Shown here: positions 1-11,229 of the stretch, in pieces
How positions within the stretch are numbered: the first letter of the stretch is position 1
Layout: each line of letters starts with the position of its first letter
From: a virus
Taxonomy: Duplodnaviria > Heunggongvirae > Uroviricota > Caudoviricetes
DNA: 11,229 nucleotides
Direction: 5' to 3' (one strand)
Virus record (IMG/VR): IMGVR_UViG_2778261502_000002
Span: 1-11,229 of that record
Made by a program: the position numbers and the translations under genes
Notes under the pieces: model-generated
What the model was told of the DNA's origin: nothing
The model's input: only the letters and a program-made list of their open reading frames with translations
Database searches by the model: none

Positions 1-84
1 ATGGCGGGTTATTTGTCCTGGTTATTCCCCCGTTGTAAAATCTCTCCTAAACTTAACGGTACGGCACCACACTTCGGGGATGAA

Positions 85-276
85 ATGTTCGCGCTGGTAC
101 TTTTTGTTTGCTACCTGGATGGCGGTTGTGAAGATATTGTTGTGGATGTCTACAACACGGAACAGCAGTGTCTTCATTCTATGAGCGATCAACGGATCCG
201 CCAGGGCGGTTGTTTTCCGATTGAGGATTTTATAGATGGTTTCTGGCGACCTGCGCAGGAGTACGGTGATTTTTAA
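85..276 (+). CDS. yebW: small conserved protein, YebW-like (63 aa)
   Basis: Frame is open from position 1 (track ORF 1..276); the internal ATG at 85 gives a 63-aa product MFALVLFVCYLDGG... Its stop abuts the pphA stop (276/277). Identity is recalled from the K-12 yebW-pphA neighbourhood and not verified. Confidence 0.4.
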   Translation: MFALVLFVCYLDGGCEDIVVDVYNTEQQCLHSMSDQRIRQGGCFPIEDFIDGFWRPAQEYGDF

Positions 277-933
277 TTATTGCAATTGCACAAGAGTCAG
301 TTCGCCCCCAAAGACAGCACCGGTATCAATATAATGCAGGTTGCCAATATCCACGCGATGTCGCAACGGTGTATGACCAAACCAGAAATGATCAGCACCT
401 GTAATTCCCTGCCCTTTTGGGCGTTCACCTAATCGTGAGCGGCTCCACAAGACCTGATGCAAATCAACGTCCTTTTGCCATTCATAAACATCATCTGGAT
501 AATCGGCATGAGCAATAACATGTTTGCCGGTGCGGCTGTGTACTTCAAGAATAAAGGGCAAATGCTGACATTTTTCCAGCGCCGTTTTCGCTTGTTTCTG
601 TTGATTATCTGCCAGCGCAATAAACCAGTCGCCGCCATTCATCAACCACAAAGACATCTGCTGGGATGCCAGCGCATCCATCGCCATCTGTTCATGATTG
701 CCTCTTACCGCACGAACCCAATGTTGTTCCAGTAACTGCAGACAACGTAAACTTTGCGGCCCACGATCGATAACGTCTCCCACTGAGATAAGTAAATCTC
801 GCCACGGATCAAAACGACAATGCCATAATTTGCGGCGCAACTGCTCAAGACAACCGTGTATATCGCCAGAAAGCCAGATATGTCGCCATTGATGACCCGC
901 AATTCTCTGATAAACGGGCGCAGGCTGTTTCAT
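277..933 (-). CDS. pphA: serine/threonine protein phosphatase 1 (lambda-phosphatase-like metallophosphoesterase)
   Basis: The track ORF 277..936 starts at a TTG; the first ATG is at 933, giving 218 aa MKQPAPVYQRIAGHQWRHIW... Metallophosphatase motifs GDIHG, GDVIDRG and GNHE are present. The adjacent SdsR-like fragment favours pphA over pphB. Confidence 0.8.
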   Translation of the reverse strand: MKQPAPVYQRIAGHQWRHIWLSGDIHGCLEQLRRKLWHCRFDPWRDLLISVGDVIDRGPQSLRCLQLLEQHWVRAVRGNHEQMAMDALASQQMSLWLMNGGDWFIALADNQQKQAKTALEKCQHLPFILEVHSRTGKHVIAHADYPDDVYEWQKDVDLHQVLWSRSRLGERPKGQGITGADHFWFGHTPLRHRVDIGNLHYIDTGAVFGGELTLVQLQ

Positions 934-1067
934 CAATATTTTCCTCCCGCGCTAAAGATCACATAATCTTAACAAGAATGTTAAAAAACGCTGGACTCAG
1001 ACAGTAGAGTGTGTGTTATGGTTGACTATAAAGTCAGCGAAGGAAATGCTTCTGGCTTTTAACAGAT

Positions 1068-1100
1068 AAAAAGAGACCGAACACGATTCCTGTTTTCGTC
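1068..1100 (-). ncRNA. sdsR: 3'-terminal fragment of sRNA SdsR (RyeB), terminator arm plus U-tract, probably cut by prophage insertion
   Basis: The minus strand reads ...ACAGGAAUCGUGUUCGGUCUCUUUUU (1093 down to 1068), which matches my recollection of the SdsR 3' end. The partner stem arm at 1092-1100 is degenerate (GACGAAAAC), so the hairpin cannot form. The reference sequence is recalled from memory only. Confidence 0.35.
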
Positions 1101-1397
1101 AACAAACAACAAAATCTTTTAGAATTAATGTGTTAAATAAATTTATGCTCATCTTTTAATCCCTAACACATACCATTACATATTAATACATTCAATTAGT
1201 TACCATTTTTTTCGAGTTTTTTAGAGAAATTTTCGGGAATATTTCAGATCAATCCATGCATACACAAGCAATTCCTGTATTGAATAATTCCGTAGCAATT
1301 ATGTAAAATCACCTCCGGCTGATTTTCATTCAAACTCGCGCTATCGAACGTCCATCAGCCAGCCGTGGCACGTTCTTGCATACGACGTGCTACGGTT

Positions 1398-1535
1398 TCA
1401 TTTATCTCCGACCGGACACTTCTTATACAAAGTCGATACGCCAACATCATAGATGATCGCCACCTTCTGGCGAGAAACTCCTGATGCAATTAGTCGTCCA
1501 GCCTGCGCCCATTGCTCCGGCGTGAGAGTAAGACA
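1398..1535 (-). pseudogene. C-terminal remnant of a Pin/Gin/Hin-family DNA invertase (HTH DNA-binding domain only)
   Basis: Minus-strand translation gives ...LTLTPEQWAQAGRLIASGVSRQKVAIIYDVGVSTLYKKCPVGDK*, closely resembling the Gin/Pin C-terminus as I recall it. The frame is closed by a TGA at 1554-1556, so only about 45 residues survive and there is no catalytic domain. Confidence 0.6.
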
Positions 1536-2166: not shown

Positions 2167-2739
2167 TCACAGCTCTGGCCATACGATATCCGGGGCTGTA
2201 TTTATATCAATCCGACTCACTAATACCCGGTATTTTTTCCAGGAAGATAGCATCGAGACTTCTTCATCAGTTGCCATTTCAAAATTAACAGCATCCTGCA
2301 GAATTGTTATGTTATCAGTCGCATCCTGGATTAATCTTGCCTTTTTCTCTTCCGCCTCCCGGATCCGGAACAGTTTTTCTGCTTCTGCATCTTTCACCCA
2401 AGCTGTGCCGTTCCACTTCTGAAACTCCCCATCCGGCGACAACCAGGTGACATTTTCCGGTAATGGGCCAAGTTCAGAAATAAATAACGCGTCGCCGGAA
2501 GCCACGTCATAGACGGTTTTATCCCGATGGTCTTCAACGAGATGCCACGATACCTCATCACTGTTGAAAACAGCCACAAAGCCAGCCGGAATATCTGGCG
2601 GTGCAATATCGGTACTGTTTGCTGGCAGACCTGTATGAGGCGGAATATATGCGTCACCTTCACCAATAAATTCATTAGTTCCGGCCAGCAGATTATAAAT
2701 TTTTATGGTCCGTGCTTGTTCAGTCATTCTGAAATCCAT
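2167..2739 (-). CDS. tail fibre assembly protein (Tfa; lambda Tfa / Mu U family)
   Basis: 190-aa ORF, ATG at 2739 with AGAGGT ribosome-binding site 5 nt upstream. Sequence [41 protein letters not shown]... matches the Tfa family as recalled from K-12 TfaE/TfaR. Confidence 0.85.
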
Positions 2740-2747
2740 GTTTACCT

Positions 2748-3650
2748 CTACTTAATATCAGAGACAGAATATTGTTTATTGAGCGTATGGGTGTGAGCAC
2801 CAATAACGATGCTACTTCCGTGGCTATGTGCGCCAGAGGTGACATTACCTACGGGATTTTCTGGATTAATCCGATGTATATGCGAATCAGGGCGAAACCG
2901 GTTATTAGCCTGATGTTGTATCAGTACATCATCAGCCTGATGTTCAGGATTAATACAGACCTGCCCGGAACGTGAGCAATACGTCCGATAATCGCCGCAT
3001 CCAATATATTTAGTATCCGCATAACGGCAAACAGAATTACCCGGACAGTATGCATATGTGCCAAATACTGCCGACTGGCGAGATTGTGCGTATTCCCAGT
3101 TAATTGATTCTGTTTTTTTATTAAAGTTATCCCAGGCCTGCTTCATCTGGCGGGCAACACTTTCAAACGGCACCTGACCACATCCGGCCCCCATTGCAGG
3201 GAATACCACCGTGGTTATTTTCCTGTCTGTTGTTGCGTTTTTATTGTGCTGAAAGATGGCAAGTAAAGCGGCCCACGTAGCGTTATATACAGCGTCTGTT
3301 CCATCAATTGTCAGCGGAACACGCATTGTTGGCGCATGTACCAGCCAGGGGTGATGATTATGCCCCGTTTCAATCACAAATGCAGAACCTACAGGCTGTT
3401 CGCCTAGATATTCACGAAGAATATGATTCTGAACGCGGGACTGTAACTGAGTACCGAAGAATGCGGTAATGGCGGCATCAACGCCTCCATCCATCAGGCC
3501 GAAACTATTTGCCGCACTTACCATGCAGTCAAATTCTCTGATTGTTTCAAATGGCTTTCCGACAATATTCACATTATCTGCATTTGCGAATACCCGCTTA
3601 AATGCTTCAGCCATTTCTGTTACTGGTGCAGAAAGAATGAGCGTAATCAT
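2748..3650 (-). CDS. macro-domain protein (ADP-ribose-binding/processing fold) with Cys-rich, HxH-containing C-terminal module
   Basis: 300-aa ORF whose ATG (3650-3648) overlaps the fibre gene stop as ATGA, with a GAGG site upstream. The N-terminal ~175 aa carry the macro signature: [18 protein letters not shown] (N-x6-GGVD loop) and [14 protein letters not shown] (second phosphate-binding loop). They align colinearly with YmdB/MacroD as recalled. The C-terminal ~125 aa have 6 Cys and HIH/HSH/HTH motifs. Confidence 0.7.
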
Positions 3651-4762
3651 GCAAGCCTCACAATATAGTTAAATGCGATGTTTTTGACGGTGTTTTCCGC
3701 GTTACCAGCAGCGTTAACGGTGATGGTGTGTCCATGTGAGCCAATTGCAACGGAGTGCGTATGTGCACCAATACCGACAGTATGTGTATGCGCCCCAGCA
3801 CTTGCTGCAGTACCTGATACTGAGTGGGTATGCGCGCCAGCAGAATTCGTTGCACCTAAGTGAGTTTGAGCAGAGTTCGACGAAGCTACTCTACCGGAGC
3901 TAACGTTAGCATTATCCCCCTGAGATATCGGATGCGTATGTGCACCTGCTGAAGCTGCTGTTCCGCTAACGCTATGGGTATGCGCACCAGTGTTATTCGT
4001 AGATTTAGTTCCATAATCAAACGATGATGTGTTTTTTGTCCCTAAATCTGTATTTGAAGCACTGGCGCTGTGGGTGTGCGATTTAATGCCGTCCTGTTCC
4101 AGGCTAAGAACATCACGTCCACTTGCAGGCTTACCTTTGATTGTCCAGCCACGCATATCAGGGATCACGCCTGACGGATAAGCGGCTGCAAGTTTCGGGT
4201 ATGCAGACTTGTCAAAAGTCTGTCCCTGCATCAGAGCATAACCAGATGGAACTGTATCTGATGGCCACGGGATCGGGGCACCTACAGGAAAGGTCGAATT
4301 ATTTTCCAAACCAAGATATTTAAGGACATCAGCAACAGAGCTTTTTGCCAAAATATCTCGCCCAACCTGTGTCAGGTCAGCCAAATTAGCGGTATCTTGA
4401 TTGGTAAAATACGGTAATTTGTTTTCGGATGCTGAAAGATTAGCAAGTGCGGTAAGTATGGCATTAATTCTCTGATAGTTCTTATCTAATGCAGACGACA
4501 TTTTTGCGATAAAGCCGGCCTGATCGCCATCGTCCTGTACATCCAGTCCACTTTCATTTGCTGTATATTGTGCTATTGCAGATGCAATAAAGCTGGCCTG
4601 CCGAATAACCTTATTGACTTGCGCACTGGATGCTTTCCCTGCTGTAAATCCGGATAAAAGCGCAGGCAACGCTTCCCATTCCTCCTGCGACATAACATTG
4701 GCATTTTTACCCGTTGCGAATGCTTTAAAGTCATTTTTTGCCATCAGAGTAATACTCCCCAT
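3647..4762 (-). CDS. side tail fibre protein with HxH-repeat distal domain
   Basis: 371-aa ORF. An alternative ATG at 4744 overlaps the upstream gene stop (TGATG) and may be the true start. The C-terminal third contains seven HxH motifs and a duplicated 19-aa unit [19 protein letters not shown]. Position between baseplate genes and tfa fits a fibre gene. Confidence 0.8.
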
Positions 4763-5424
4763 GCCCCTACATCAAAACCACTGATAAATTCGTTATCCAT
4801 ATCAAAACCAAAAAATTTTGAACCTTCCGATGGGGTTTCCACCGAAGGTGTTTCAATGCCACCCGCCCACACCCCGGCGGCTTTTACTGTGAGATATCCC
4901 TGTTTAATTGCAGCAATTAACTCACGCGATACATCTGAAATATCTGTATCAGGAAAGGCCCAGACCGATATCGTCATGTCCTGGTTATCGACAATCTGCA
5001 TTCGCAGCCCGGATCCTGCTGTCGCCGCGTCAAGAATTGCTGGAAGCGAATCATTCCGTCCGTCCCAGTTATTAATCGCAATCTTCGCTTTAAGGATGAC
5101 ACGATAAGTTTCATCGCTGAGGTACATGTATCCGTAATCAGGATCGTATGGCCCCTGCCATACACCCTGATCATATCCAAGCCCGTCGGTATCCCAGCTG
5201 AAATAGACACCTGAGATAAGCTGGCTGACAACACGACTACGTCCGATCCACAATCCCAGAATGTCAAGTTGCACACCAACCGCGGAGTCAATATCAAATG
5301 CAGTAATCAACCCTCTGGTGGCCGCCGCAACATCAATAAGCGGCCGGGTCATCAGATCAACATGCGCAAGAAATTTAGGTTTGGTGGCGTGGTAGTTCGT
5401 GATTAGTTCGGTGTATTTGCTCAT
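4744..5424 (-). CDS. baseplate protein, Mu gp48 / P2 gpI-like (YmfQ/DUF2313-type)
   Basis: 226-aa ORF whose ATG overlaps the J-like gene stop (ATGA at 5421-5424). Assignment rests on position between the J-like gene and the fibre gene, plus family resemblance. Confidence 0.7.
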
Positions 5425-6620
5425 GACTCCACCGTTATAACGATATTTTCCGGGGTACAGGACGCAGATTCGTTATATCTGATATCAATGTTTGATGACG
5501 ACAAAGCCCCCGGAGATTTACCAATCGTCAGTTCCTGAATATCGTAATAGCGTGCATTCCCGCCACTCACCACGCCAAGATTCGCCGGTGAGTAAATGCG
5601 ACTTAAAAGGACCGAATCACCGATCGTCAGACTATTGATATAGTCGGAAATAGCCTGCTGGATCTGCTGCCCTATCTGTGAGGTATAACCCGTAAAAACT
5701 TTTAATTTAATCCGGGCATAAACAGGCACATCACTGGAACGCGAGAATTTGATTACATGGGGATTGCCGTATTTATCCGGAACCGTAACGGATGTTGTAC
5801 CGTGAGTGGCTGTCCCCTGGCCTTTATTCCCTCTGATAGCCTGAGCAATATCCGTTACATCACCGCCATCCACAATTACAGCAACAGAGTGTGGCGGTAA
5901 CCCGTTACCGTCCTCCGAACCAGTATCGTTTTCATAGAGTTTGTGGCGGGTTACACCGGTAACATTAGAAACAGCACCATCCAGTGCTTCAAATGGGGTT
6001 ATTGATGGCAACGCAACACTTTGCGACTGGCGGATACGTAACTCCGCATCAGTTTCTGCCGGAGTGCCCACAGTAGCCGCAGCAGGATTAGTTACCGAAA
6101 CCCAGCCACGGGTTGGCGTATTAATTTCAGTGATAGTTCCAGCCAGCGCCGCCACTGCACCACTGACGGAACATTTTGCGGTCACCATCACTGTACCATC
6201 CACGCCGACCACCACTGAAGCAGGCAAACGCCATATCACATTATTACTGTCTTTCACGCTGCCATTAATGATGGTTGTTCCGGCAGTTCCTGTAAGAAGC
6301 AAATCAACCGTAGAATTCGTCGCGCCTTTACGTGAAATACCATTTATTTTCACGTTACTGGTCAGTGCAGCCCCATAGCCGGTTGCCGGTGAAAAACAGT
6401 TGTAGACAGTTATCGCCATATTATTGGCATCATGAATCGCCAGCGCCATCAGAGCCACCATCTGGCCGTCTTTGCTGTCCGGTTCGAGGTAGGCATCACT
6501 GCCATAAATCTGCTGAAAATAGCTAATCAGGGTGCTGAGTATCGTCTGATAATCAGGCGCACTGATCCCCTCCGCGGTTACCTTTGCAGATAAACCGAGA
6601 GAATCAAGGTTCAGAGCCAT
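5421..6620 (-). CDS. baseplate J-like protein (Mu gp47 / P2 gpJ / T4 gp6 family)
   Basis: 399-aa ORF, ATG at 6620 overlapping the upstream stop (TAATG). Size and position in the spike / gp25-like / J / I gene order support the call. Confidence 0.75.
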   Translation of the reverse strand: MALNLDSLGLSAKVTAEGISAPDYQTILSTLISYFQQIYGSDAYLEPDSKDGQMVALMALAIHDANNMAITVYNCFSPATGYGAALTSNVKINGISRKGATNSTVDLLLTGTAGTTIINGSVKDSNNVIWRLPASVVVGVDGTVMVTAKCSVSGAVAALAGTITEINTPTRGWVSVTNPAAATVGTPAETDAELRIRQSQSVALPSITPFEALDGAVSNVTGVTRHKLYENDTGSEDGNGLPPHSVAVIVDGGDVTDIAQAIRGNKGQGTATHGTTSVTVPDKYGNPHVIKFSRSSDVPVYARIKLKVFTGYTSQIGQQIQQAISDYINSLTIGDSVLLSRIYSPANLGVVSGGNARYYDIQELTIGKSPGALSSSNIDIRYNESASCTPENIVITVES

Positions 6621-6973
6621 TACGCCTCCGATGTAACAGTCGTTATTCCATAGAGAGTGTCGATTTCAGCGGAAAACATGACACGTCGGGTCGTGGTATC
6701 CACCGTCGTATTGAAAGAGAGGATTGATTTAACGCCCCGCGTTTCGAGGATGCGCTTACGGATCGCCAGGTTGTAGGTTTCCGGCTTCTGCTTACCGAGT
6801 ACGGACTGGATCCACGGAGTCCCCTCGGTGGTGTCGAGAAACCATTGCCCATACCACAATTCGAATCGCGTTTTTACCGCCTGCGCCACGGCCTCCGGTG
6901 AGTTAATCAGCCAGGTGTCATCACCGCTGCCAAAGGTGTAATCGCCATCGGCGTCTTCACGTCTGTATCGCAT
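6620..6973 (-). CDS. small baseplate protein (gpW/gp25-like, Mu gp46 position)
   Basis: 117-aa ORF, ATG at 6973 overlapping the spike gene stop (ATGA). Assigned by size and position between spike and J-like genes; the family call is tentative. Confidence 0.55.
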   Translation of the reverse strand: MRYRREDADGDYTFGSGDDTWLINSPEAVAQAVKTRFELWYGQWFLDTTEGTPWIQSVLGKQKPETYNLAIRKRILETRGVKSILSFNTTVDTTTRRVMFSAEIDTLYGITTVTSEA

Positions 6974-7725
6974 CAGTTTACCCCATCGGTATTGCTTCCA
7001 CCGCGCTGAACACCGCCATGAGTGTGCGTATCATCGATTGGCTTGCCGTTAGCCTTCACGCTACCCAAAAACTCAACAGCACCAGTGATTTTTGAAGCCA
7101 CACCAGAAACAACAGACCCCACCATGCCACCCATCCAGGTTAACAGGCCATGAATGGTTACTTTCTCAGAAAAATCAGCCAGGGGGGCAACCACATCAAG
7201 CCCCCCCGGAGCGACAATTTTAATTTTCCTGGTATCAGGATTAAGCTCAAAATAGGTGCTGCCGTCGTCACTACGCAACTGTGTGGCACTGGTATTAATA
7301 CCGCTAATCTTCCTAGCTTGCGACTGGGGACCGACAATACAAAACGCATCCGATAAATCATGCATTCTGTCATCAACAGGCTCCTGTATCCCGCCGCTCT
7401 GCCACCAGAAATCAATACAACGATCGGCAAAAACGACAAGACACTCATCCCCGGCTTTTACCGGAAAAGTCAACGTACAGCCTCCGCCGCGCGGGAATAC
7501 CACTGGCACATCCACCAGCAGGGGTAATGTCGTCGACTGGTTGATTCCATTTGAGTCCGGCTCATAGCCTTTAATCGCAGGTTGAACAACCACTGTTACC
7601 GTGTCCGGATCAAATGACTGGACGATGCCGGGCATAGAAACACGCAGCGCCGACATGACAGAGCCAGCAAGTCTTACATCGGCCTGTTCTTTGCTACCAA
7701 GTTGAGCGCTTAAAGAAACGGGCAT
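6973..7725 (-). CDS. baseplate spike / assembly protein V-like (Mu gp45 / P2 gpV family)
   Basis: 250-aa ORF, ATG at 7725 with a GGAGA site 7 nt upstream. Contains a GDECLVVFADR segment that fits the gpV N-terminal fold as I recall it. C-terminus GKPIDDTHTHGG has an HxH motif as in metal-loaded spike tips. Confidence 0.7.
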   Translation of the reverse strand: MPVSLSAQLGSKEQADVRLAGSVMSALRVSMPGIVQSFDPDTVTVVVQPAIKGYEPDSNGINQSTTLPLLVDVPVVFPRGGGCTLTFPVKAGDECLVVFADRCIDFWWQSGGIQEPVDDRMHDLSDAFCIVGPQSQARKISGINTSATQLRSDDGSTYFELNPDTRKIKIVAPGGLDVVAPLADFSEKVTIHGLLTWMGGMVGSVVSGVASKITGAVEFLGSVKANGKPIDDTHTHGGVQRGGSNTDGVN

Positions 7726-7744
7726 TCATATGTCTCCAGAAAGT

Positions 7745-7766
7745 AAAAAACCCGCCGGGTGGCGGG
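7745..7766 (-). terminator. rho-independent terminator for minus-strand transcription
   Basis: Perfect 6-bp GC stem CCCGCC/GGCGGG (7751-7756 and 7761-7766) with a 4-nt loop, followed on the minus strand by UUUUUU (7750-7745). Lies 19 nt downstream of the small membrane protein gene stop. Confidence 0.7.
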
Positions 7767-7784
7767 TTCATTATTGAAGTTTCA

Positions 7785-8024
7785 TTACTGCTTGTTTGCT
7801 TCTAACGCTTCAGCTATTCGGCGAAGATACTCATTGTTTTTAAATGAAACCATGATGCACTCAAAGAATATTCGGCAAAATACAGCACATAACAAAAGCA
7901 CTAAAGCGCCAGCAGCCTTCCCATTAACAAACGTTATAATGGCGGCAACAACCAGAAGTAACATTGTGATGCCATACAGAACGTTGATGATTTTTGGAGT
8001 TATTAATTTATCAAATCCGAACAT
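7785..8024 (-). CDS. small membrane protein (79 aa, two predicted TM helices), moron
   Basis: ATG at 8024 with AAGGAA site 9 nt upstream. Two hydrophobic stretches: ITMLLLVVAAIITFV and AAGALVLLLCAVFCRIFF. Low GC. Flanked by its own promoter-like sequence and terminator. Confidence 0.55.
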   Translation of the reverse strand: MFGFDKLITPKIINVLYGITMLLLVVAAIITFVNGKAAGALVLLLCAVFCRIFFECIMVSFKNNEYLRRIAEALEANKQ

Positions 8025-8060
8025 GTGACAAATTCCTTATCGTGAAAGTAGAAGTATCAC

Positions 8061-8088
8061 ATTATAATTACGAGTGATTAATCAACAA
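8061..8088 (-). promoter_or_regulatory. candidate sigma70 promoter (TTGTTG-N16-TATAAT) for the small membrane protein gene
   Basis: On the minus strand, -35 TTGTTG is the complement of 8083-8088 and -10 TATAAT is the complement of 8061-8066, with a 16-nt spacer. It sits about 35 nt upstream of the ATG at 8024. Sequence-only prediction. Confidence 0.35.
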
Positions 8089-8163
8089 TCTTTTTGCATG
8101 GAAAGGAACCGATGATTTTCGGCGCATCCATGCTGTTCTGCAGAAGCTGGACGCCAATGTAAT

Positions 8164-8499
8164 TCACTTCACCTTCCGGCAATCATACGTCCAGAACTCC
8201 CGAGGCTCGTCCATATTTTTGCGGATAACTTCAACGTTGAGGATCGCTTTTTTGTTTCGTTTGATGTAGTCCATACCTAACCAACGTCCAGTATTAGGAT
8301 CAGGTAACATCCATTGCATCATGACATTATCGAAATCGTCTTTTTGTTTCAAAAAGGTCATTTTTTGTGTTTCTGGCTTTTGACCATTGATGTGCATGAG
8401 GCCATCATTACCAGCATCAAAGCGGAATGGTCCGCACTGCGTTGCCGCCGAAACTGTTAACGGCAGGGCCAAGAATAAACAAAAAAATACTTTTTTCAC
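8164..8499 (-). CDS. secreted/periplasmic small protein (111 aa, signal peptide), moron
   Basis: GTG start at 8499 overlapping the hub gene stop (GTGA), with a GGAG site 7 nt upstream. N-terminus MKKVFFCLFLALPLTVSA|ATQ is a typical Sec signal peptide with a VSA cleavage motif. Two Cys in the mature part. No lipobox. Confidence 0.6.
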   Translation of the reverse strand: MKKVFFCLFLALPLTVSAATQCGPFRFDAGNDGLMHINGQKPETQKMTFLKQKDDFDNVMMQWMLPDPNTGRWLGMDYIKRNKKAILNVEVIRKNMDEPREFWTYDCRKVK

Positions 8500-9530
8500 T
8501 CTACATCTCCGACTTTGTCCAAAGTGCCTTTTGCCAATAGTTCTTTGCCACCTTTAGCCAGGCAAAGCAGGTCCATATACCACGCCTGCCCTCGGGTGTC
8601 GCCAGTATAATCAATGCTGCCCACAATGTAATCACCGTCAGTATTAATGCTGGCAGGCTGTGACATGCCTGGCAGACCGTTAACGTAGAGATTACCGTCG
8701 CTTTCAGACTCATCCAGTAGTGCTGGCGATTTCGCTACCTGGTCATTACTCAAAGAGGCACGGTATACAGATGCCTGATCCAGACGAATAAGCCCACCGA
8801 GCTTAATATTTGGATTAATCAGACATCTGACATTTACGCCAGCTCCCATCGTCTGCTGTGGCATACCGATAAGCCCGGTGTTAGCATTCAACACCGTAGC
8901 AACACCAATATATTTATCTTCAGGAACAATATTTACCAGATTATTTTCATACCACCAGTTAGCCTTACACTGCCCTGCGATATGATTCATCAACCTTGAT
9001 GTGTTTTGATAAACAACGCGACCCCGGGGAAATACCGTTTCAGGCATGTCAGGAACTGCGCCGGATTCGATGCCATATGGTTCGAATGATTTCATACCCA
9101 GACTGAAAAGATCTCTGTACTTCCAGCCAGCTGCCACTGTGGTTTTCACACTTGCGTTCAGGTGGCCTTCCCAGCTGTCAATACACTGCAACATGATCCA
9201 ACTGTCTGTGGCATTATCTTTACCAGTGACAGTAAAACGGATATCTCCATTGAATATCATACCAACGTTTTCATCAGGATAATTACCTGCTGCATCCGGT
9301 TGCCCCTTGTATCCGGCAATAACCTGTATACGCGAAAACTCCTTCTGCATAATCCGGTTCTGAGTGGTAGGGGACAGGTTATAAACCTTAAAATTCCCAA
9401 CGAATCCATTGAATATGGTCGCAGGCATTTTCTGAATATTGAAAGTGACTTTAAGCTCAGAAATTTTTATCCCGTCGCCCTTATCATCAACAAGCAATAA
9501 TTCAAAGTGACGCATCCAGTTTTTCGACAT
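8496..9530 (-). CDS. baseplate hub / tail protein (Mu gp44 / P2 gpD-like), putative
   Basis: 344-aa ORF, ATG at 9530 with GGAG site 6 nt upstream. It immediately precedes the spike gene block in Mu-type order. The family call is by position and size only. Confidence 0.55.
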   Translation of the reverse strand: MSKNWMRHFELLLVDDKGDGIKISELKVTFNIQKMPATIFNGFVGNFKVYNLSPTTQNRIMQKEFSRIQVIAGYKGQPDAAGNYPDENVGMIFNGDIRFTVTGKDNATDSWIMLQCIDSWEGHLNASVKTTVAAGWKYRDLFSLGMKSFEPYGIESGAVPDMPETVFPRGRVVYQNTSRLMNHIAGQCKANWWYENNLVNIVPEDKYIGVATVLNANTGLIGMPQQTMGAGVNVRCLINPNIKLGGLIRLDQASVYRASLSNDQVAKSPALLDESESDGNLYVNGLPGMSQPASINTDGDYIVGSIDYTGDTRGQAWYMDLLCLAKGGKELLAKGTLDKVGDVE

Positions 9531-9532
9531 TG

Positions 9533-9835
9533 TTACTCCGTGAAAACATAGAGGTGTGAGAGCGTTCCAAGATCGAATTGCGTCGGATTCTCCTGCCCTG
9601 CCACGTCGCAGAGCACCACCAGAGAAAAACCCAGATCCATATATCGATACTGTGCCAGCAGGTCAGCCCCCGTAATCATCGGTATACCTGATATAATGGC
9701 GGAGCCATTGCTGTCAGCAAGATCCAGAACCCAGTACTCGCCTCGCCAGATGACAGACAGGTGATAAACCGAACCGTTAATTGTGGTGGCAAAAGTCTGA
9801 TTGTCAGCAACCAGTGGGATTTCTACGGCTTTCAT
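9533..9835 (-). CDS. hypothetical phage tail-module protein (100 aa)
   Basis: ATG at 9835 with AAGGTGA site upstream; the stop lies 2 nt before the hub gene start. No family recognised. Confidence 0.5.
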   Translation of the reverse strand: MKAVEIPLVADNQTFATTINGSVYHLSVIWRGEYWVLDLADSNGSAIISGIPMITGADLLAQYRYMDLGFSLVVLCDVAGQENPTQFDLGTLSHLYVFTE

Positions 9836-9838
9836 GAA

Positions 9839-10198
9839 TCACCTTCCCAGAAATAAATTGCTCAAATACCCATCAACAGTGGAGATACCTTCTTGCGCCA
9901 TCTGTGGCAGCGATTTCAGAATGGAATTATTCGGCGGCACCGTTGTTTTGGTGCCTGTATTCTGCACAGCAGACGTTCCGACTCCCTCGGTCATATTGTT
10001 TTTCGGGGCAATGCGAATACCTTTGCGGGTCATATCATCCGGGATAGCATCGACTGCTTCGCCGATGATCCAGGACGAACGATAGGACCATTCCACCAGC
10101 ATGCGGTTACGACTGGTGAAATTAGCCCGGTAGGTGGATGCAGAGTGCTGGTTAGGTGTCTGCATCCCTAATGGGCGACGCAACATACCAGGAAACAT
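9839..10198 (-). CDS. hypothetical protein, possibly the 3' fragment of a truncated upstream tail gene
   Basis: 119-aa ORF. An in-frame stop lies 27 nt upstream of its ATG, and its 5' end overlaps the start of the plus-strand exonuclease-like ORF, so the start context looks non-native. Confidence 0.3.
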   Translation of the reverse strand: MFPGMLRRPLGMQTPNQHSASTYRANFTSRNRMLVEWSYRSSWIIGEAVDAIPDDMTRKGIRIAPKNNMTEGVGTSAVQNTGTKTTVPPNNSILKSLPQMAQEGISTVDGYLSNLFLGR

Positions 10199-11229
10199 TC
10201 GATGAAGAGAATCAGGTTGAAGCTAAGGAAAATGATCCGGAGGAAATGGAAGGCGCTGAACATCCGCACAAGGAGAACGCTGGCAGCAATCCGCATTGCG
10301 ATTGCAGTGATGAAGCTGGTGAAGCGACAGCACCTGTAGAAACTGAAATCATGTGGCCGTCATATTTCGAGCCAGGCCGCTATGAAAACCTCCCGAACGA
10401 GGTTTATCACTCCGCCAACGGAATAAGCAGCACAATGCTGAAGGATGCCCGCATCAGCCTGATGTATTACCACGGACGGCACATTGCCGGAACTATTCCG
10501 GGCGAGGAAAGTGATGCATTGCTGCGTGGGCGGATTATTCACAGCTATGTTCTGGAAACGGATAAATTCGCTGATGAGTATGCCATTCCGGTACCGGTTC
10601 CTGAATATGTGGTTACTACTTCTAACGAACTGATCGCCATCATTAAAAAACACAATGCCAGTCTGCCAGCACCGATGACACCAGAGCAGATGAAAGAGTG
10701 GATCGAAAGCTACAACAGCACTCTTATACAGCCACTGTCGGTAAGTGCCGGGGCCGAAGAAACAGGCATCCTTTACTGTTCGCTTCCGGAGGAATTCCGG
10801 CGTATTCCTGAGGGGGAAAAACACACAGCATCAGCAATGAAAGCCTGTATTAAAGAATACAACGCAAACCTCCCTCCTCTGTTGAAAACCAGTGGATCAC
10901 GGGAGCAACTTCTGGAGCAAATTGAAACTGTAGATCCAGAACTGGCAAAAAAAGAACGTGCTAAATCTTTGCCTTACAACATCAGTGGCACAAAAGAGCA
11001 ATTAACCGAAATCGCACGGAAAATTCGCCCGGAACTGGTGACACTGGAAGACTGGCAAAAACGCCAGCAAGAAGAAAACGCCGGGAAAACGTTTATCAGT
11101 CCGGATATGTATGAACAGGCAAAAAATATTCACGCTGCACTGCAAAACAATACCGATGCAGCAAGGCTACTCAACCACCCGGATCGCAAATCTGAAATCA
11201 GCTATTTCGGGTTTGATGAAGAAACCGGG
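10171..11229 (+). CDS. partial ORF (at least 353 codons, runs off the window end), putative phage exonuclease (RecE/exonuclease VIII-like); 5' end uncertain
   Basis: Long open frame not in the ORF track because it has no stop within the window. An in-frame TAG lies at 10153-10155; candidate starts are ATG 10171, 10246 (GGAGG upstream) and 10351. The product is acidic and K/E-rich. The exonuclease assignment is from weak recollection and needs a search. Confidence 0.45.
   Translation, partial: MGDATYQETFDEENQVEAKENDPEEMEGAEHPHKENAGSNPHCDCSDEAGEATAPVETEIMWPSYFEPGRYENLPNEVYHSANGISSTMLKDARISLMYYHGRHIAGTIPGEESDALLRGRIIHSYVLETDKFADEYAIPVPVPEYVVTTSNELIAIIKKHNASLPAPMTPEQMKEWIESYNSTLIQPLSVSAGAEETGILYCSLPEEFRRIPEGEKHTASAMKACIKEYNANLPPLLKTSGSREQLLEQIETVDPELAKKERAKSLPYNISGTKEQLTEIARKIRPELVTLEDWQKRQQEENAGKTFISPDMYEQAKNIHAALQNNTDAARLLNHPDRKSEISYFGFDEETG

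Follow-up and report, generated by a model that had tools for sequence, protein, structure and literature searches.

The question raised by this locus is how phage-like DNA came to be joined to the Escherichia coli chromosome, apparently inside the gene of a small regulatory RNA, and what the joining left behind on either side. The stretch of DNA analysed, called here the window, comprises 11,229 nucleotides assigned to a tailed virus of the Caudoviricetes (IMG/VR record IMGVR_UViG_2778261502_000002). Its first part is nevertheless bacterial: positions 1-1098 correspond to E. coli yebW-pphA DNA, which is matched at ~98-99.9% in all 5426 complete E. coli genomes, and in nearly all of them the match ends at position 1098. 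Two host core genes are found in this part, namely yebW (85-276, plus strand; Pfam DUF1482, E = 2e-35) and pphA (277-933, minus strand; Pfam Metallophos), which encodes a serine/threonine phosphatase, both named after the RefSeq annotation of the colinear loci of strains RM8082 and CM2. The pphA-sdsR-yebY locus is uninterrupted in 5190 of the 5426 genomes, and an alignment with it, which the initial annotation of this DNA had suggested as a check, is colinear up to 1098 and diverges from there on. From 1099 onward the window is prophage, starting with an AT-rich stretch of 300 bp, followed by a pin pseudogene, an acetyltransferase gene and tail-fibre/baseplate genes. The GC content is 26.5% at 1101-1300 versus 45-49% within pphA, and the sequence is colinear with the P′ arm of a phage attP and with tail genes, in line with the phage DNA of high AT content that had been described beyond the junction. 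In annotation, the initial 1098 bp of this predicted viral window are to be regarded as host DNA. Eight other IMG/VR contigs (L005, L007, L010, L011 and L013-L016) start at the very same host base, each with a match to the core at 1084-1110, so that viral-region calls appear to take in the 1098 bp of yebW-pphA.

At the end of the host part lies a remnant of the small RNA gene sdsR, also known as ryeB. Window positions 1067-1101 read TAAAAAGAGACCGAACACGATTCCTGTTTTCGTCA (the junction in a longer reading is AAAAAGAGACCGAACACGATTCCTGTtTTCGtcaACAAAC), and the uninterrupted K-12-like locus (L002) reads TAAAAAGAGACCGAACACGATTCCTGTATTCGGTCC (longer reading, AAAAAGAGACCGAACACGATTCCTGTATTCGGTCCAGGG). 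Three parts are unchanged from the native sequence, namely the 7-nt loop GATTCCT at 1085-1091, the left stem arm GACCGAACAC at 1075-1084 and, at 1068-1075, the U-tract complement. The right arm, native GTATTCGGTC, has become GTTTTCGTCA in the window (1092-1101), with differences at 1094 and from 1099 onward. Alignment with the intact SdsR at positions 4068-4167 of the K-12-like locus, together with folding, identifies the remnant as the last 26 nt of sdsR (SdsR +78 to +103), which comprise the U-tract, the 3′ stem arm and the loop and are located at 1068-1093 on the minus strand. Folding of the SdsR strand gives no terminator hairpin for the remnant (minimum free energy of -5.7 kcal/mol, z = +0.61, with 145 of 200 shuffled sequences folding as well), versus -15.8 kcal/mol for the intact K-12 sequence (z = -3.5; 0 of 200 shuffles as good). 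These data agree with the initial annotation, which had seen the 3′ loop, one arm and the U-tract of SdsR intact beside pphA and a complementary arm so altered that the hairpin is lost; the SdsR 3′ sequence that it had relied on is also the right one, as checked against the Rfam-matched intact locus.

The Rfam searches point in the same direction. On the intact locus, SdsR (RF00111) and RyeA (RF00101) score 114 and 175 bits, respectively. In the window RF00111 finds no match, even at E <= 1, and a full-length sdsR gene with its sigmaS promoter, seed region and terminator hairpin is absent, the 3′ 26 nt being all that is present. A RyeA match at 1064-1152 stays below threshold (24.8 bits against a gathering score of 37, E = 0.32), and just model positions ~1-40 truly align in it. 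Without its partner arm, the 26-nt piece beside pphA is predicted to be non-functional and should not be annotated as sdsR.

The plainest account of such a damaged hairpin would be that the sdsR terminator decayed in place, through point mutation and a small deletion, and that ordinary host DNA follows without any insertion. The cmscan alignment is compatible with this, as positions 1092-1100 differ from the native arm by one substitution (at 1094) and an apparent 1-nt deletion, but the sequence after 1098 bears no similarity to native sdsR-yebY DNA and is colinear with phage DNA, namely the P′ arm of an attP and tail genes. Moreover, the native continuation is the one found in 5190 genomes, and related lysogens keep the remaining sdsR and yebY ~42 kb away. 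Decay without insertion is thus refuted by the native-locus alignment, the far end of the RM8082 prophage and the attP of phage genome PP818812.1, and we grant it practically no probability.

We hold with high confidence that window 1067-1098 is the attL left by a lambda-type site-specific integration into the Rho-independent terminator of sdsR, a target that lies at the same time within the antisense gene ryeA. This reading comes from a four-way comparison, in which attB is represented by the K-12-like locus, attP by phage genome PP818812.1, attL by the window and attR by E. coli RM8082. The attP of PP818812.1 reads AAAAAAAGACCGAATACGATTCCTGTTTTCGTCAAC and is positioned between the tail-fibre genes and the integrase gene, an interval that contains AATTAAAAAAAGACCGAATACGATTCCTGTTTTCGTCAACAAAC and then a close homologue of window 1099-1400; this phage site is a near-copy of the terminator (AAAAAAAGACCGAATACGATTCCTGT|TTTCGTCAAC). 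The junction and the four sites are directly observed: the attL of the window is made of the left of attB and the right of attP, and the attR of RM8082 (L003 20384-20430) is made of the left of attP and the right of attB.

Over the similarity block at 1067-1098, attB and attP are identical at 29 of 32 positions, and two differences are diagnostic for the exchange. Position 1082 is C in the host and T in the phage, and position 1094 is A in the host and T in the phage; the window carries the host-type C and the phage-type T, respectively, while attR and attP both have T at the position equivalent to 1082. Because these polymorphisms bracket the exchange, strand exchange is placed within ACGATTCCTGT, at 1083-1093. 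All 15 attL copies (those of the window, RM8082, strain 99_0288 and 12 IMG/VR contigs) are identical at the junction, and the polymorphisms segregate as predicted. The initial annotation had put the prophage boundary inside the SdsR terminator hairpin, with an att core at roughly 1080-1095, and had proposed integration into the ryeA/sdsR locus. The end of similarity to uninterrupted loci at 1098, a crossover that falls within that range and the relation among attL, attB, attP and attR uphold the three proposals.

The exchange interval, of 11 bp, is wider than an overlap of 6-8 bp and contains the 7-nt loop flanked by the inverted stem arms. A tyrosine integrase would have exchanged strands within this interval, most likely across the loop GATTCCT (1085-1091), which we infer to be the overlap region; the flanking stem arms are candidate core-type Int sites. 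What remains of sdsR at the pphA-proximal junction is its final 26 nt, continued by the AT-rich P′ arm.

The record that supplies attP has a peculiarity of its own. PP818812.1 (L017) is named 'Actinobacillus phage vB_Apl-pPE4', yet it is close to the E. coli RM8082 prophage, with 98.9% amino-acid identity in the integrase and 98.2% nucleotide identity in the int region, and it is 95.8% identical to the recE fragment of the window. Its stated host looks doubtful and its provenance uncertain, the attP sequence itself reading unambiguously.

The other end of the insertion can be followed in RM8082, which shares the junction of the window and its first 2.7 kb at 98.3% identity. In this strain a prophage of ~42 kb is located between pphA and yebY, and its far end consists of an excisionase gene (Pfam Exc), a gene for a tyrosine integrase of 358 amino acids, AATTAAAAAAAGACCGAATACGATTCCTGTATTCGGTCCAGGG, a complete sdsR/ryeA and then yebY. 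Here the integrase is associated with the att site, and the matching att repeat and the integrase that had been anticipated at the opposite prophage end are both present in this relative, along with an excisionase, next to yebY. On this attR side, RF00111 and RF00101 score 118 and 179 bits, respectively, and the hairpin folds at -15.8 kcal/mol. The integrase has the lambda Arm-DNA-binding domain (Arm-DNA-bind_1), a central domain and the catalytic domain (Phage_integrase). The window itself does not contain an integrase; int, xis and attR are documented in its relatives only. If our reading is true, an integrase ~97-100% identical to WP_047087972.1, and after it AAAAAAAGACCGAATACGATTCCTGTATTCGGTCC, an entire sdsR and then yebY, should be found beyond the window end.

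Among the 5426 complete E. coli genomes, an attL of the window type occurs in 228, and this int joined to sdsR also in 228; eight genomes have the locus interrupted in some other way. In E. coli 99_0288 (L004, from 7390 onward), the sequence corresponding to window 1-1390, attL and P′ arm included, leads into another kind of prophage, a lambdoid one with the type III effector gene nleG7, which indicates that the att/int module is common to unrelated phage types.

A second alternative would accept the junction and deny its mechanism: the two sequences could have been brought together by illegitimate recombination, by an IS-mediated rearrangement or by deletion out of a prophage located elsewhere, the likeness to an att site being coincidental. 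The element is indeed clearly rearranged, with a pin pseudogene and internal deletions whose joins are at 10010/10011 and 10170/10171. However, the junction is base-for-base the same in 15 independent sequences with different prophage types and equals half of the attP found in a phage genome record, the reciprocal junction is known and adjoins an integrase gene, and positions 1094-1100 show neither IS ends nor target duplications. We consider such a non-specific joining very improbable, and return to site-specific integration into the sdsR terminator.

If the phage integrates in this way, which of the overlapping host genes pays for it? Integration does not destroy sdsR, because attP brings a second copy of the terminator, and RM8082 shows the gene restored on the integrase side; the piece in the window is accordingly a leftover duplicate and not one half of a split gene. 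On this point the initial annotation has to be corrected, since it expected the SdsR 5′ part alone at the other prophage end, and the far end of RM8082, the one lysogen on which this reading is based, holds a complete sdsR (RF00111, 118 bits). In RM8082 the integrase-proximal junction thus carries a complete sdsR with a terminator supplied by the phage. The rebuilt gene in RM8082 differs from the native one by two base changes at its 3′ end, one of which lengthens the U-tract.

The element that is truly split is, to judge from its sequence, ryeA, whose promoter and 5′ end remain in the window. The end of a published ryeA-CAT fragment equates sdsR +132 with ryeA +10 (PMC6610125), from which ryeA +1 corresponds to sdsR +141, at window ~1030; a RyeA of 270 nt that stops at the T-run of its terminator (L003 20618) fits this start. 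It follows that the promoter and the first 64 nt stay beside pphA, reading into the prophage. The host ryeA promoter region and start (~1029-1030, the start being taken from PMC6610125) occupy 992-1030 on the plus strand, with a sequence identical to that of K-12. Putative hexamers are a -35 box TGGACT (992-997) and an extended -10 box TGtTATGGT (1014-1022); a simple promoter scan gave no flag for this promoter. The first ~64 nt of ryeA (1030-1093, plus strand), K-12-identical up to 1093 and partly covered by the RF00101 match at 1064-1152, are now fused to phage DNA. Thus, an orphaned host ryeA promoter with 64 nt of its transcript would be directed into the prophage, and no intrinsic terminator is predicted between 900 and 1700. 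On the opposite side, upstream of the regenerated locus, the one candidate in the phage P arm is a sigma70-like TTTGCA-16-TACAAT, which is weak evidence for a promoter.

The bidirectional nature of the locus means that even an insertion that regenerates sdsR cuts ryeA from its own promoter and pphA from the promoter of sdsR. In uninterrupted strains most pphA transcription is read-through that starts at the sdsR promoter (PMC6610125), and in the lysogens, where this promoter sits across the prophage, pphA would be separated from its usual transcription. According to the summary of Balbontin 2008 given in PMC7380047, lysogeny by Salmonella PhiW104 lowers ryeA expression and raises that of ryeB, and by analogy the same outcome is likely here. 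One may go further and suppose that the insertion is a regulatory conversion, and not just a neutral scar, in which the native sigma70 promoter of ryeA is taken away from the SdsR/RyeA pair; we offer this as a tentative idea, on the unlikely side of an even judgement. Were it true, the lysogens would be relieved of transcriptional interference and of the RyeA-mediated decay of the SdsR 'toxin' sRNA, and ~4% of E. coli strains would have a stationary-phase sRNA circuit rewired through this integrase family. Other changes that could matter are the longer U-tract of SdsR, the uncoupling of pphA from the sigmaS-dependent sdsR promoter, and the aim of the orphaned ryeA promoter at the acetyltransferase gene on the same strand (1611-2156). 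All these expression consequences are drawn from published work on K-12 and Salmonella, strains other than that of the window. At the level of the DNA, ~4% of complete E. coli genomes have a physical break in the SdsR/RyeA/pphA circuit that was described for K-12 (PMC6610125).

On the phage side of the junction, the P′ arm of attP extends over 1094-1390; it is colinear with the attP of PP818812.1 and ~99% identical in RM8082, 99_0288 and 12 IMG/VR contigs. It contains a candidate arm-type integrase site, TTTCGGGA, at 1231-1238 on the plus strand (+156 from the core), which matches two tandem TTTCGGGG motifs located in the P arm at -59 and -49. The +156 motif occurs in both pPE4 and the window. 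The TTTCGRGG pair at -59/-49 is conserved in the E. coli attR, in the pPE4 attP and in a Salmonella record (there as TTTCGAGG), and the -49 copy is found in phage Tbat2_3. We regard these motifs as good candidates for arm-type sites, and as such they would account for the ~99% conservation of 1099-1390 in prophages that otherwise differ. The attP sites of these phages, whose integrases are 51-99% identical to that of RM8082, all carry the left arm of the SdsR terminator, so defining an integrase clade with members among E. coli and Salmonella records and in a phage from bat faeces.

Some further repeats and relatives deserve mention. A second partial copy of the left half of the core (AAAAAAGACCGgAATACAG) lies in the P arm, 85 bp upstream of the real core (L003 20304-20322), and is conserved in the E. 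coli attR, the pPE4 attP (L017) and the Salmonella record (L019); it could be an extra Int site or the relic of an old att site. At 1271-1281, 185 bp into the P′ arm, ATTCCTGTATT is an 11-nt repeat of the attB-type right half-core, which may be due to chance or be a relic; it was discarded as a second core-like functional site, as it is not conserved in the pPE4 attP. The bat-faeces phage, Flyfo siphovirus Tbat2_3 (L020 3603-3690), with an integrase 51% identical, has the attP AAAAAAAAGACCGAATACcaATCCTGTTTATTG, where the stem arm is the same and the loop is different, suggesting that its target is the sdsR terminator of another enterobacterial host. A search for the host range with the 20-mer CGATTCCTGTTTTCGTCAAC among GTDB species representatives gave as its sole match a Bacteriovoracaceae MAG (L018), which was set aside as a chance occurrence devoid of SdsR or phage context.

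Among known systems, the nearest is the ryeA/ryeB insertion hot spot of Salmonella, described by Balbontin, Figueroa-Bossi, Casadesus and Bossi in 2008 (J Bacteriol 190:4075) and summarised in PMC7380047, so the literature on such a hot spot to which the initial annotation had referred does exist. Following that summary, the att site of Salmonella PhiW104 is the last 23 bp of ryeB, and the target coincides with the one described here (the last ~23 bp of ryeB/sdsR, a terminator internal to ryeA); the same account speaks of a replaced ryeA 5′ portion, and RM8082 also regenerates sdsR. The Salmonella record OK490361.1, which has a gene annotated as SopE, has a partial integrase with 74% identity to that of RM8082 and the same attP layout, with a GACCGAATACGATTCCTGT core, tandem TTTCGAGG at -59/-49 and an upstream copy of AAAGACCGGAATACAG. 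The differences are that the host is here E. coli, whose attB has C at 1082 where Salmonella and the phage have T, which reduces the longest perfect attB/attP match to 11 bp instead of ~20 bp, and that the prophages at the E. coli site are either myovirus-like, with a contractile-tail baseplate, or, in other strains, lambdoid with nleG7. The target has also been catalogued in another species, apparently Citrobacter freundii to go by the 'Cfr' prefix of the Islander-style name 'Cfr111.52.RyeB'. A literature search, in which Balbontin 2008 was covered through its summary, found no E. coli-specific report of a prophage at pphA/yebY or of a lambdoid phage at ryeB. The insertion in the window is the E. 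coli counterpart of the Salmonella hot spot, well resolved, correct and ordinary: the principle was published for Salmonella in 2008, and a specialist would not be surprised. Its value lies in being a cleanly resolved E. coli case of a phage that uses an sRNA terminator hairpin as att site, with four sites and an 11-bp crossover.

With the lambda and HK022 systems, the one studied here shares an integrase with arm-binding N-terminal, central and catalytic domains (41% identical to HK022 Int), a lambda-type excisionase gene upstream of int, an int gene that adjoins attP, and AT-rich attP arms of ~150-300 bp with repeated motifs. The core sequence and the chromosomal target are not the same, and the binding sites and cleavage positions are here putative. 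A further difference from lambda and HK022 is that the core falls on an RNA hairpin, which would make the stem arms the two core-type sites. Another parallel is integration into the 3′ ends of tRNA and tmRNA genes with regeneration of the gene, as known for P4, P22 and many genomic islands (Williams 2002, as cited in PMC3603311); the present insertion is a case of this wider class, in which the 3′ end of a small structured RNA gene is the target and the gene is restored. In both situations attP duplicates the 3′ part of the gene of a small structured RNA, which stays intact, a short dead duplicate remains at the far junction, and strands cross over within a stem-loop whose loop has 7 nt, which is also the case at anticodon-loop sites; the target, however, is here the terminator of a regulatory sRNA and not a tRNA.

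The prophage that entered through this site is a deletion remnant, as indicated by comparison with RM8082. Behind the P′ arm comes a pseudogene for the C-terminal helix-turn-helix fragment of a Pin/Gin-type DNA invertase (1398-1526, minus strand; pinE match, and 'missing N-terminus' in the RefSeq note of RM8082), and next to it a terminator-like hairpin (1364-1395) lies in a region that Rfam partly matches to CssrB, an sRNA of Shigella (1364-1420; 30 bits against a gathering score of 76). An accessory gene for a hexapeptide-repeat acetyltransferase follows at 1611-2156 on the plus strand (~35% GC; Pfam Hexapep, 1e-13; phrog_2154; 'serine acetyltransferase' in RM8082). It has a promoter-like TAGAAA-17-TATAAT of its own at 1544-1572, the orphaned ryeA promoter lying ~580 bp upstream on the same strand. 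The tail module (2167-10010, minus strand), recognised by Pfam and PHROG matches and colinear with the RM8082 prophage, encodes tail-fibre assembly (2167-2739), a 300-amino-acid macro-domain protein (2748-3650), a tail fibre (3647-4762), a DUF2612 protein (4744-5424), baseplate J (5421-6620), wedge (6620-6973), spike (6973-7725), and baseplate hub and plug (8496-9835) proteins, all on the minus strand. It is followed by a 160-bp island of a portal gene (10011-10170, minus strand), 98% identical to L001 40342-40501 in a DUF1073 portal gene, and by an internal fragment of recE (10171-11229, plus strand) that runs off the window end, is 95.7% identical to the recE of RM8082 (L003 15812-16870) and is also present in PP818812.1.

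The junctions at 10010/10011 and 10170/10171, which leave the portal piece between a baseplate gene and mid-recE, correspond to two deletions versus RM8082, of ~11 kb and 18 kb, in which the genes from tail tube to head were lost together with those for terminase, lysis, regulation and replication. The genome and viral contig collections gave 0 matches to a 35-nt pattern bridging 10170/10171, and no complete E. coli genome spans this junction. With most of its genome lost in this way, the attL of the window is probably a fossil. It could instead be the true attL of a still-mobile element, with int, xis and attR kept beyond the window and excision carried out by itself or with a helper. In favour of mobility, recE is reached at the window end, and in RM8082 recE is only ~3.4 kb upstream of xis-int-attR, so that the observed deletions need not have taken these; in addition, attL is undamaged, and full-length prophages have a P′ arm that matches this one at ~99%. 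Against it, the deletions span morphogenesis, terminase, lysis, regulation and replication genes, so that the element is unable to form particles on its own. Mobility is a possibility we rate as rather doubtful, and a fossil remains the more probable reading of this attL.

A few observations on the prophage genes stand apart from the junction. Rfam IS009 gives a full-length match at 2198-2396 (minus strand) that remains below threshold (95 bits against a gathering score of 117, E = 3e-21), and since it lies wholly inside the tail-fibre assembly gene, the family seems to model the coding region of a prophage tfa gene. The CssrB, IS009, snoZ247 and RAGATH-7 matches, all below their gathering scores and in prophage genes, were judged unrelated to the junction. 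Window 8153-9835 represents a divergent allele of the baseplate genes of RM8082. Finally, the macro-domain ORF (Pfam PF01661, 2.6e-18; phrog_2613, 7e-149) sits between the tail fibre gene, which it overlaps by 4 nt, and the tail-fibre assembly gene, where RM8082 has only a truncated tail fibre; a domain for ADP-ribose binding or hydrolysis within a tail-fibre locus is unusual.
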